Below are positions 50,965-55,529 of a stretch of DNA of 64,000 bases, one piece after another (position 1 is the stretch's first letter; each line of letters starts with the position of its first letter). The stretch lies in the NCBI RefSeq assembly GCF_036321535.1, contig NC_087436.1, positions 52,640,001-52,704,000 of the forward strand. Reading direction: 5' to 3'. Both the position numbers and the translations under genes were made by a program. This DNA comes from Camelus dromedarius. Lineage: Eukaryota. The notes under the pieces were generated by a model. That model was not told where the DNA came from. It did not search any database and worked only from the letters and a program-made list of their open reading frames with translations.

Positions 50965-51330
50965 GCCACATGGTAAGATGGAAAAAGAACTGAATTTGGA
51001 ATCAGAAGGCGAGTGCTCTTGTTTCAGTTCTAGCCCTTCTTAGCTATATGACTTAGGGCAAACCTCTTCAAATCTCTGTCCTCAGTTACTCTTTTGTAAA
51101 TATGGGCAAATTGTAAATATGGGCAATATGTATAGTAAATTATATACAAGGTTGTTTTTATTTTTAAATCAAGTAATACATGAAAGCATTTTGTAAGTAA
51201 TATACCCATAAAAAAGTACATGTTATTTTTTTACTTTACTATACAAGGTTGTTTTTATTTTTAAATCAAGTAATACATGAAAGCATTTTGTAAGTAATAT
51301 ACCCATAAAAAAGTACATGTTATTAGTAGT
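50965..51330 (+). mobile_element. MIR SINE carrying two internal tandem duplications
   Basis: gaactgaatttggaatcagaa...tagctatatgacttagggcaaacctc...ctcagttactcttttgtaaa; duplications at 51094-51126 and 51143-51324. Confidence 0.8.
51143..51324. repeat. Perfect 85-bp direct duplication with 12-bp spacer
   Basis: 51143-51227 identical to 51240-51324; spacer tttttactttac. Confidence 0.97.
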
Positions 51331-52112
51331 CAAAATTTAATATTTTCTTTTTTAACTTTTTTTATTGAGTAATAGTTATTTTGCAATATTGTGTCAAATT
51401 CTAGTGTAGAGCACAATTTTTCAGTCATACATGAACATATATATTCATTGTCACATTTACTTTCTTCACTGTGAGCTACCACAAGATCTTGTATATTTTC
51501 CCCTGTGCTATACAGTATAATCTTGTTTATCTATTCTGCATTTTAAAATCCCAGTCTGTCCCTTCCCACCCCCCACCCCCTTGGCAACCACAAGTTTGTA
51601 TTCTATGTCTATGAGTCTGTTTCTGTTTTGTATTTATATTTTTTTTCTCTTTCTGGCTTACTTCACTTAGAATGACATTCTCCAGGAACATCCATGTTGC
51701 TGCAAATGGCGTTATGTTGTCGGGTTTTGTGGCTGAATAGTATTCCATCGTATAAATATACCACTTCTTTATTCAGTCATCTGTTGATGGACATTTAGGC
51801 TGCTTCCATGTCTTGGCTATTGTAAATAGTGCTGCTATGAACATTGGGGTGTGGGTGTCATTTTGAAGTAGGGTTCCTTCTGATATATGCCCAGGAGCAG
51901 GATTCCTGGGTCATAGGGTAAGTCTATTCCTAGTCTTCTGAGGAATCTCCATACTGTTTTCCACAGTGGTTTTCCTTGCTTCCCTCTCCCACTCTTAATG
52001 AGTTAGATGTCTTCTTTTACAATTATGTGTTTATTCTTTTTGTAATTCATGGCAGTTATCTCCTTTCCAGTTATGAGTTTCTCATTTTTGTAGCATCCTG
52101 CTTCTTTCCTAT

Positions 52113-53003
52113 TTAAAGTAGACCTGTCAATACTTCTTTTAGCATGGGTTTAGTGTTGCTAAACTCTTTTAGTTTTTGCTTGTCTGTGAAGTCCTTTATC
52201 TCTCCTTCTATTCAAAAGATAGCCTTGCTGGAATAAAGTATCCTAGGCTACATCTTTTTTTCATGCAGGACTTTGAATATATCTTGCCACTACCTTCTGG
52301 CCTGTAGGGTTTGTGTAGAGAAATCAGCTGAGAGCCTTTTGGGGGTTCCCTTGTAACTCACTCTTTGTTTTTCTCTTGCTGCCTTTAGGATCATTTCTTT
52401 ATCCTTGACTCTGGCCATCTTGATTATGATATGTCTTGGTGTGGGTCTGTTTGGGTTCTTCCTGTTTGGGACCCTCTGAGCCTCCTGTACTTGGATATCT
52501 GATTCTTTTAGGTTTGGGAAGTTTTCAGTCATGATTTCTTCAAATACCTTTTCAATCCCCTTTGTTCTTTCTTCCCCTTCTGGAACCCCTATTATGTGTA
52601 GATTGACATGCTTTATATTATCCCATAGGTCCCTTATATTGTTTTCATTGTTTTTTATTTGTTTTTCTCTCAGCTGTTCTGATTGGGTGTTTTCTGTTGT
52701 CCTGTTTTCTAGGTCACTTATTCATTCCTCTGCATTATCTAGCCTGCTTTGTACAGCCTTTAGGTCAGCTCTCATCTCAGCAAATGAGTTTACTAATTCT
52801 ACTTGGTTCTTCTTTATAGCTTCTATTTCATTTTTGACACATTTTATATCTCTAAACACTATTTCTTTTAGTTCCTTCACTACTTTGATCACTCTGTTTT
52901 TGAAATCTTGATCTAGTAGGCCATCAATGTCTATTTCCTTGATTGTGCTTTCAGAGGATTTCTCTTGATCTTTTAATTGGGAGTGGTTCCTCTGCTTCTT
53001 CAT
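52113..53003 (-). pseudogene. L1 ORF1p (coiled-coil/RRM/CTD RNA-binding protein), disrupted by premature stops
   Basis: In-frame ORFs MKKQRNHSQLKDQE...RLDNAEE* (53003-52722) and MTENFPNL...RHIIIKM...RLSADFS* (52532-52290); natural TAA at 52113-52115 after KEVLTGLL. Confidence 0.93.
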
Positions 53004-54333
53004 ATTGCTTATATCTCTCTGGCACTGTGGCTTAAGGAGTATCAGTTATCTAGTTCTCCTGGAGACAGTGTGCTCTTAATGATTTTATCGAGAGGTCTTT
53101 GTGTCTTTGCCGTTTTGCGAACTCAGCTTGCTGTTTCCAGAGGCCCTCTGTTGGTGCCGTCATCTGTGCTGCTCCCAGTGGCTGTCGGCTAGCAGATCGT
53201 GCCCCCTCCCAACACTGGGTCAGGAGCTGAGCTCTTACCCAGTGGGTAGGTAGGTCACTCCCTCTCCCGATGCCACAGTCAGATGCTGCACTGGGGGGAG
53301 GCAGGTGGGCAGATCGCACCACCTCCCAGCACTGTGGTCAGGTGCTGCGTTCCTGCCAGGATGGCGGGTGGCTGCCTGCCCTCTCCTGGAGCCAGTCGGC
53401 CCACTGCTCTGTGCAGCTGCCCACTCCACCTCGGGTCCGCTTTCCAAAGGCAGGCTCGGAAGACCGCAGAACGGCCCCGCCCCTGCTCTGTGCCAAATCT
53501 CAGCTCCTTGTTTGTCTTGGTGGCGCAAGTTCTCTGAGGTGCTAGGGTAGAAAGATCCTATCTGCCTCAGGCTGTAAACAAGTCTCAGTCCTGTCTAGGA
53601 GGTTGCAGAGCCCCTGGGTGTGGATTCAGGACTCGCCCCTGCCCCTGTCCTGGTGCTGCACACAGGAGGAGATGGTGGCTGTGGCTGTGCCCCACCTCTC
53701 TTCTCACGAGATGTGCCAGTAATGGTGGTGCAGGTCTGAGGAGACAAAGGCTATGGCGTCCCTTCCCCCAGGGCACACCAGCCATGTTGCTTTGCTTTTC
53801 TTGCAATTTATCGGGGACCGAGGTTGTTCTGCTCCATAGCCCCCCCCCCCCAGCCATGGAGGGCAGCCCCATACAGTCCCCCAGGGCTGCCTCAGTGCAG
53901 CCGCTCCAGTGCTCCGCCCGGCTCGGGCGGCCTGTCCTGGCCCCCAGCTGCTGGCTCGCATCTCAGGCTGGCTGTCACGGGGACCCTCTGTGCCTGTTTA
54001 ACTCAGTTCTGTTGGTCAAGGGGTGCTCAGGGCAGATCTGAGCCTCTGAGGCTCCCCTTCCGTCCCACTGGCCTCTCCGTTGGAGAGGGGAGACCAGCGA
54101 ATGAGCACCAGTCCTCCTTTGCTGCTCTCTCCCCGCAGGATTGGCCCCGTACTGTTTTGCTTTTTCTTCTTTCTTTTTTCCTTTCCTCCTACCAGATTTT
54201 TGGCATCTTTGTCTTTTGAAGAGGACAATGTTCTGTCGGAGTTCGGCAGGTGCTCTGGTTGGCTGAGTAGGTCTGTAGATGTGAGTTTCGGTGTATTTGT
54301 GGGAGAGGGTGAGCTACAAGCATCCTTCTACTC

Positions 54334-54343
54334 CGCCATCTTG
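54334..54343 (-). promoter_or_regulatory. YY1 site at L1 5' terminus (internal promoter)
   Basis: caagatggcg about 9 nt from element 5' end, the usual position in mammalian L1 promoters. Confidence 0.8.
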
Positions 54344-55529
54344 CTTCTCCCCAAAATTTAATATTTTCTGATCACAGGATGTTAACTTATTGCCCTAGTC
54401 CCACATAGTTACATTAACTGACTTTGTAAAAGAGATCAATTAAATGAAGCCCATGATCTCCTTGGTCAAAAGTGCTTTGGCAGGATGTTTATTCTTCTAA
54501 CATGGTTGTCATTGCTTTAAGACTCCAGTGTATACTTAAGTTGTGCAATGCTGTCAAGATTTTGCCTCTACATTGATTTATCTATATTCACATGTTTCCC
54601 ATGGCCAGGTAAGAATGAATAATGGCAGAAATAAATGCTGCTTCCTTGACACTTTCTGATTTCAGAGGCCTCTTTCAGCCACATTTAATTGTAGGCAATG
54701 AATCTCAGGACAAAAACTTTCACCTCAACTTCCCTTGGAAAATAAGTGAGCAATAATGATAGATAAGGCTCAGATATAACCTTGGCTGAAGCTAATGTGG
54801 GAAGACTTCAGTCAGAGAGTCAAAAATCTAGCATGCTGAGCTCAGCTGTGCTAAAAGCACATGTCACATCAACATGACAGATAGCCTCTATGGAATCTGT
54901 TTTTCCTTCAATTAAACGGAAGAAAGAGGGGGATTAGAGCTCAATTGTTCTTAACTTTGCGTGCTGTGGGTCTCTCTAAATATTAAAAATCACAACCACC
55001 ATATGAGGAGGTATTAATATTAGTTTCACTTTATTATTAGGGCACTGAAGCTTAGGGTATCTAAATAACACAAAATAAAATTTTCACCCAAGTCAAGGAC
55101 CCACACAGATGATCTACGGAAGACTTTGGGTTAAGAGTCTCAGAATTAGAGCACATAATCTTTCTACTTGTGCATTCTTTTCTTAAGCATAAGGCACATA
55201 TTCTACTTGAGTCACACAAAACCGTGGCCTGATGTGGCCCATTTCCTTCTAATAATAGATGGATAGTTACCTACCAATGGATATACAACACTATACAACA
55301 CTATCACCTGGTGAGACAGCAGCACTGTAGCATATTTTCAAATAATGCCCATGATTCTAAGGAATGAAAATGGATTCATTTGTCCTGGTGGCATCCAGAG
55401 AAGCTGGTGCCAGTAGACCCTGAATTTGTTCTCAGGCCACTTTCTTCCTAAATGTGCACTAGACTGGCCAGCTTTGTCAGGGACCATGGAGTCTTACTAT
55501 GAGTCCTCCCCTATAGAGAGCATAAGTGT

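Follow-up and report, generated by a model that had tools for sequence, protein, structure and literature searches.

A stretch of 64,000 nucleotides of the dromedary (Camelus dromedarius) genome, contig NC_087436.1, positions 52,640,001 to 52,704,000, was analyzed as a whole and is referred to below as the window. Its minus strand carries an L1 retrotransposon, running from 54369 to 51331 and measuring 3,039 bp counting both copies of its target-site duplication (TSD), that retains its first open reading frame (ORF1) over its full span and has lost most of its second (ORF2). The element is probably, at roughly 55%, one dead copy of a camelid ORF1-only L1 family of the HAL1 type, born by internal deletion and mobilized in trans by the ORF2 protein of L1 (ORF2p). 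The shape of the loss supports this assignment, since the main deletion leaves the entire promoter and ORF1 in place and takes all three ORF2 domains, as in a HAL1. ORF1-only L1 elements are a known kind in other mammals.

The hallmarks of target-primed reverse transcription (TPRT) are present in the form of a TSD, a short A-rich tail and a degenerate endonuclease-type site. The TSD is a perfect 18-mer (54369-54352 and 51348-51331) that occurs just twice in the window. The longest word common to random pairs of segments 3 kb apart was 11 nt, and 12 nt or more was reached in 0 of 3000 pairs when the true TSD pair was excluded; with that pair left in, 18 nt was reached in 3 of 3000. The bottom-strand nick at insertion would have had the context TTCT/G, a degenerate L1 endonuclease site, the consensus being TTTT/A (PMC5860796). 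The element has a complete 5′ end, and the head of its 5′ untranslated region (UTR) aligns to the head of an older L1 of the window with a score reached by 1 of 300 shuffles. An internal promoter for RNA polymerase II probably lies within this 5′-UTR, close to whose start is a motif (54342-54333) that we take to be a YY1 site. At the opposite end, the final 90 nt of the 3′-UTR are 88% identical to a short L1 copy at 33550-33461, and a poly(A) remnant of about 5 A follows the A-rich end of the family. A preliminary description of this DNA had reported an 18-bp perfect TSD around a 3.0-kb minus-strand element with a GC-rich 5′-UTR of ~1.35 kb, and the identical 18-mers, the random-pair control and the measured 1,348 nt at 58% GC agree with it. 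The poly(A) end that it named holds for the A-rich tail and the polyadenylation signal, with only those ~5 A remaining of the homopolymer.

ORF1 (53003-52113) matches the Pfam families Transposase_22 and Tnp_22_dsRBD (PF02994, PF17490) above cut-off and PF17489 slightly below the Pfam cut-off; the domains looked for were those of an L1 ORF1 protein (coiled coil, RRM and CTD). Its protein is 82% identical to the intact P0002, 88% to P0003 and about 60% to pig ORF1. Over 228 residues, 22 are common to the element and P0003 against P0002, and 16 of these 22 also occur in P0027, which places the element's ORF1 in a distinct multi-copy sublineage. The reading frame is interrupted by in-frame stops at codons 94, 238, 252 and 264, and three-frame translation reveals a compensating +1/-1 frameshift pair near codons 257-264. 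The stop at codon 264 is a by-product because it falls inside the frameshifted stretch, leaving three genuine nonsense codons (94, 238 and 252). The ORF1 of this copy is dead, and the copy codes for nothing. An autonomous L1 has an intact ORF1 and an intact ORF2; the element has neither. The 891-nt ORF1 with a few stops that had been described earlier is therefore correct in its span, with the frameshift pair to be added and one of the four stops secondary to it.

The age of the copy can be gauged from the same reading frame. Ten residues are private to the element over the 228 aligned columns, which corresponds to about 2% DNA divergence (9.8 expected, 95% range 4-16, in a simulation at 2% without a CpG effect). 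That simulation yields 0.4 stops per 228 codons, whereas the copy has one stop within the aligned columns and a total of three nonsense codons. The stops exceed expectation, so 2% alone was judged too low and the divergence of the copy is estimated at about 2-4%, which we take to represent some millions of years. The element is thus young, as first described, in its divergence, although it is not intact.

Downstream of ORF1, 143 nt of the spacer between the two reading frames are preserved (51970..52112). Once translated, they are 85% identical (33/39 aa) to P0130, the conceptual translation of a sister copy of the spacer, and they are weakly collinear with a 504-nt pig-like spacer, with scores that 22 and 25 of 500 shuffles also attain. 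Precisely at 51969, homology to the 3′ ends of other L1s sets in, both in all three window copies extending across this point (3/3) and in locus L010. The CCHC motif, or zinc knuckle, of camel ORF2 proteins stops four codons before this resumption point, and 122 residues follow it. A pig-like ORF2 (aa 1-968) compared with the element by tblastn gave no match inside it. The coding regions for the endonuclease, the reverse transcriptase and the CCHC motif are missing, and the loss would amount to about 1,150 ORF2 codons plus the remaining spacer, or ~3.5-3.8 kb. In all these respects, namely a spacer of ~143 nt, an abrupt jump at 51970/51969 and the absence of the three coding regions, the preliminary description is confirmed. 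Its last ~120 codons of ORF2 are right for the starting point, but only about 110 are left, as a second gap takes the end.

This second gap lies near 51640 between A-rich stretches and measures 53 and 60 nt against two older window copies and 57 nt by BLAST offsets. The final ~12 codons of ORF2, its stop and the beginning of the 3′-UTR are gone as a result; the ORF2 proteins P0122-P0124 all retain these codons and the stop. With the stop gone, the remnant of about 110 codons is frameshifted and open-ended. The ORF2 tail best matches the Camelus bactrianus protein P0122, at 93% identity across 29 aa and 86% across 81 aa, and the next-best matches are two C. dromedarius ORF2 fragments at 81% and 89%. 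On sequence grounds, the affinity of the element is with camelid L1. P0122 itself is modelled as a GTF2F2 isoform of C. bactrianus and has L1 ORF2 sequence as its C-terminal ~280 residues, probably because the gene model was spliced into an L1 lying in an intron. Another protein, P0126, a UniRef entry labelled painted turtle, is almost the same as the C-termini of Camelus L1 ORF2, the simplest reading of which is camelid contamination of the turtle assembly. A novel protein fusing the spacer to the ORF2 tail was considered and rejected: a stop lies in frame before the junction, and the sister spacer ORF P0130 ends at the same stop.

In the proposed HAL1-type history, an ancestral full-length L1 would have lost ~3.5-3.8 kb, from spacer position 143 to the codon after the ORF2 zinc knuckle. 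A jump of the reverse transcriptase or a deletion in DNA would be the most likely cause, ahead of splicing. The shortened master would still have a promoter of its own, ORF1 and the native 3′ end. It could therefore, following the HAL1 model, be transcribed, have its RNA coated by its own ORF1 protein (ORF1p) and borrow ORF2p from autonomous L1s. One such RNA would have been inserted at this locus by TPRT and then decayed by about 2-4%. The second gap, which destroys the ORF2 stop, would arise more easily in a lineage free of ORF2 selection than as a second hit on a single copy of ~2-4% divergence. Moreover, what turns up in a random window should more likely be a family member than a rare singleton with exactly this structure. 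The distinct multi-copy ORF1 sublineage and the repeated origin of HAL1-type families in mammals (PMC5753468), as in rat and pig, count in favor as well.

Several observations weigh against such a family. The ORF1 sublineage could just as well represent an older autonomous subfamily, and the tail is still 86-93% identical to a Camelus ORF2 that continues upstream, which gives no sign of long independent evolution. Searches for a second copy of the junction came back empty. Scans for a 20-nt motif of the spacer gave 0 matches in both the JGI metagenomes and IMG/VR, where there is next to no camelid DNA. An ORF1 alignment retrieved 22 metagenome and 3 GTDB loci, none of which is camelid-like (ORF1 DNA identity of 66-79%, pig- or ruminant-like in look); no loci were obtained from GTDB with P0002 or from viral contigs with the ORF1 alignment, the plasmid search returned a single spurious 65-nt match and the phage search none. 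In protein comparisons, the 19 and 4 candidates obtained with the junction-spanning translation were only ORF2 tails. A HMMER search of all representatives returned 19 matches (18 ORF2 tails and the P0130 spacer ORF), none spanning the junction, and none of the 14 of these 18 tails that were examined has a spacer-like N-terminus. No camelid HAL1 name appears in the full-text literature searched, and the HAL1 names among the Repbase rows excerpted for the camelid casein cluster belong to treeshrew and bat (PMC6726744 supplement; 29 of 138 "Vpa" and 6 of 6 "HAL1" places). In the excerpted text of a camelid transposable element survey, the term "ORF1" has 0 occurrences (PMC8605555).

Because the collections searched are nearly empty of camelid DNA, the blanks concerning the junction are weak. 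Because P0130 ends at the stop that precedes the junction, this stop is a family trait and a fused protein is not to be expected, so that the blanks of the protein searches weigh little. Of 24 sequencing runs, 22 contain some of a 601-nt segment surrounding the junction, the best share being 0.49 of 61 words and none reaching half or more; few of these 61 words span the junction, and the run matches are therefore uninformative on its copy number. It is quite possible that Repbase or Dfam already holds an entry for the element's family. The non-autonomous ORF1-only family mobilized in trans that had been suggested at the outset remains the most likely reading, with no second junction copy found in these near-camelid-free collections.

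The same anatomy could also have been produced at this single locus. A normal full-length L1 may have been inserted, with DNA repair later removing the ~3.5-3.8 kb; being internal, such a deletion would spare both ends and the TSD, and the TSD gives no date for it. There was time enough for three nonsense codons and small indels to accumulate, and ORF1 and the ORF2 tail are both close to camelid L1, as this history would have it. Such a post-insertion deletion is nonetheless unlikely, as endpoints in a few-hundred-nt spacer and in the last ~330 nt of ORF2 should make up a small share of possible deletions, and, for the 3′ parent, no homology spanning the junction is seen. Rather unlikely, too, is a one-off template jump during insertion, whereby ORF2p would copy ~620 nt of the tail, switch to a spacer, on the same RNA or on a sister one, and complete the 5′ end, leaving a copy dead on arrival and no family. 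The resumption point does lie ~620 nt from the 3′ end, a region where reverse transcription often stops (the median 5′ breakpoint is at 5.52 kb of human L1; bioRxiv 2024.08.27.596794), jumps of this sort are documented for elements without long terminal repeats (non-LTR elements; PMC3414825), and the tail matches autonomous camel ORF2. However, a second, independent loss of 53-60 nt would be required, and the internal deletions described are short and tied to 5′ inversions (bioRxiv 2024.08.27.596794), whereas the element is without an inversion.

Splicing is disfavored as the origin of the junction. In a spliced retrocopy resembling the human SpIREs, an intron reaching from the spacer to a CAG acceptor after the CCHC motif would be removed and the ORF1-only mRNA inserted in trans, possibly repeatedly; spliced L1 retrocopies are known in humans (PMC5860796). 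A YAG precedes the resumption point in 4/4 homologous fragments checked, and a good donor motif of the pig-like spacer L001 starts 2 nt before the aligned break, in a weak alignment with pig as a proxy. But the four AGs represent one homologous Gln codon of a conserved motif, so these copies are not independent evidence, and two pig consensuses have CAA at that point (PMC6501411 supplement). YAG occurs at 3.0% of the positions of a pig-like ORF2 (86 sites). In the 20 nt upstream, the pyrimidine fraction is 0.30-0.40 in three window copies versus an ORF2 median of 0.40 over those 86 sites; being at or below the median, it speaks for the absence of a pyrimidine tract. The 5′ side of the junction ends in AAA, presumably a weak exon end. 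The element also runs 2 nt past the L001 donor and 10 nt, by eye, past the place of a GTAAG present in two pig consensuses (2/37 places), to which its own GCAAG corresponds. That GC/GT spacer motif was rejected as a donor, since the element continues 10 nt beyond it. Pig-like spacers (L001, L002, positions ~198-226) contain a strong splice-donor-like motif beside a purine-rich block, and the block is recognizable in the camelid spacer.

The possible splice acceptor that the preliminary description had placed at the resumption point is thus real insofar as an AG precedes it in other copies; it is nevertheless a single Gln codon, CAA in two pig consensuses, with no pyrimidine tract and with no donor at the break in pig spacers. 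Overall, a spliced retrocopy is improbable. Most improbable is an uncatalogued camelid ORF1-only family whose founder had ORF2 spliced out and which then amplified owing to its retained promoter, ORF1 and native tail; if it existed, a spliced L1 retrocopy would be no dead end and a route to HAL1 families would be documented. An older L1 on the minus strand at 47735-46820 consists of a ~165-nt 5′-UTR head joined straight to an ORF2 tail, followed by a full 3′-UTR. This tail begins ~20 nt upstream of the element's resumption point, and the copy is the second internally deleted L1 of the window; no TSD was found for it at ~47.7 kb. Were the family of spliced origin, the near-identical 3′ breakpoint of this copy would hint at a long-lived hotspot.

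If the HAL1-type family is real, camelids would be a further lineage in which HAL1 elements originated independently, and the element would offer a clean case, with one main deletion and a recognizable parent tail, in which the mechanism of birth can be read by alignment to the parent consensus. It would also be relevant to repeat annotation, in which such copies show up as two L1 fragments. Should the element be a singleton, it would amount to ordinary L1 debris. Under either reading, nothing points to a host function for this copy.

Table 1. Layout of the L1 element in window coordinates, from its 5′ to its 3′ end, and the basis of each assignment.
Feature	Positions	Strand	Basis
5′ TSD copy, 18 bp	54352..54369	-	Identical 18-mer pair; nick-site context
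L1 5′-UTR, 1,348 nt, 58% GC	53004..54351	-	CpG observed/expected 0.34 versus 0.20 for the window; head alignment
YY1-type motif, 5′ end	54333..54342	-	Position computed; label presumed
Two imperfect 39-bp repeats, 85% alike, inside the 5′-UTR	53192..53347	-	Sequence
ORF1, 296 codons, dead	52113..53003	-	Stops, frameshift pair, Pfam matches
Inter-ORF spacer, 5′ 143 nt	51970..52112	-	Sister spacer copy P0130; pig-like spacer alignment
Main deletion junction	51969..51970	-	Start of homology to other L1 3′ ends
ORF2 C-terminal remnant, frameshifted, beginning four codons past the CCHC motif	51641..51969	-	Match to P0122
Second gap, 53-60 nt, approximate position	51632..51645	-	Two older window copies; P0122-P0124 C-termini
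L1 3′-UTR with G-rich tract	51367..51640	-	Sequence
Polyadenylation signal (51366-51361) and short A-rich tail	51349..51366	-	Sequence
3′ TSD copy, 18 bp	51331..51348	-	Identical 18-mer pair

Two further features of the window were recorded. Starting 6 nt beyond the 3′ TSD is a perfect 85-bp direct duplication (51143-51227 and 51240-51324), which may be a tandem duplication of recent date or else an artefact of assembly. An older, 5′-truncated L1 on the minus strand (34261-29835) has its ORF2 interrupted by ~1.8 kb of unrelated sequence (34115-32310), and this insert contains the short camelid L1 3′ end at 33550-33461.

Among known elements, human SpIREs share with the camel element a full 5′ end, a TSD and a clean internal deletion. 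They differ in being spliced within the 5′-UTR or between 5′-UTR and ORF1, thereby losing the promoter or ORF1 (PMC5860796), whereas the camel element keeps its promoter and ORF1, has lost ORF2, and its canonical splice signals are not evident. Full-length camelid L1 families are represented in Repbase by L1-1_Vpa, L1-2_Vpa and L1-3_Vpa; L1-1_Vpa is at least 6,207 bp long with copies 97% similar (PMC6726744 supplement) and, by name and coordinates alone, is a plausible parent of the camel element.

HAL1-type families arose repeatedly in mammals (PMC5753468), and the camel element resembles them in general in encoding ORF1p in its ancestral form without ORF2p, and in inserting by TPRT, and would fit the pattern of repeated independent origins (PMC5753468, PMC4859970, PMC13756887, PMC3183009). 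Membership of such a family is defined by multiple copies of the junction with different TSDs and by purifying selection on ORF1 once ORF2 is lost; the camel element is HAL1-like by the anatomy of one copy. The rat family RNHAL1 likewise arose when a recent L1 of its own lineage lost ORF2 by deletion; it is non-autonomous, with the 5′ end and ORF1 retained. It differs in having ~7,500 copies and is said to be still propagating, while the camel element is known from one copy with a broken ORF1 (PMC2241872). Another counterpart is the pig HAL1_SSc, or L1A6 (3,016 bp, divergence 0.069; PMC6501411 supplement), an artiodactyl element with a 5′-UTR, ORF1 and part of the spacer and without ORF2. It belongs to another L1 lineage, with its own 5′-UTR and ORF1 (PMC6501411), and its 3′ third appears by eye to be unrelated AT-rich sequence with an old L1 tail, whereas the camel element keeps its parent's sense-oriented ORF2 tail and 3′-UTR. 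HAL1_SSc and the camel element have independent origins.

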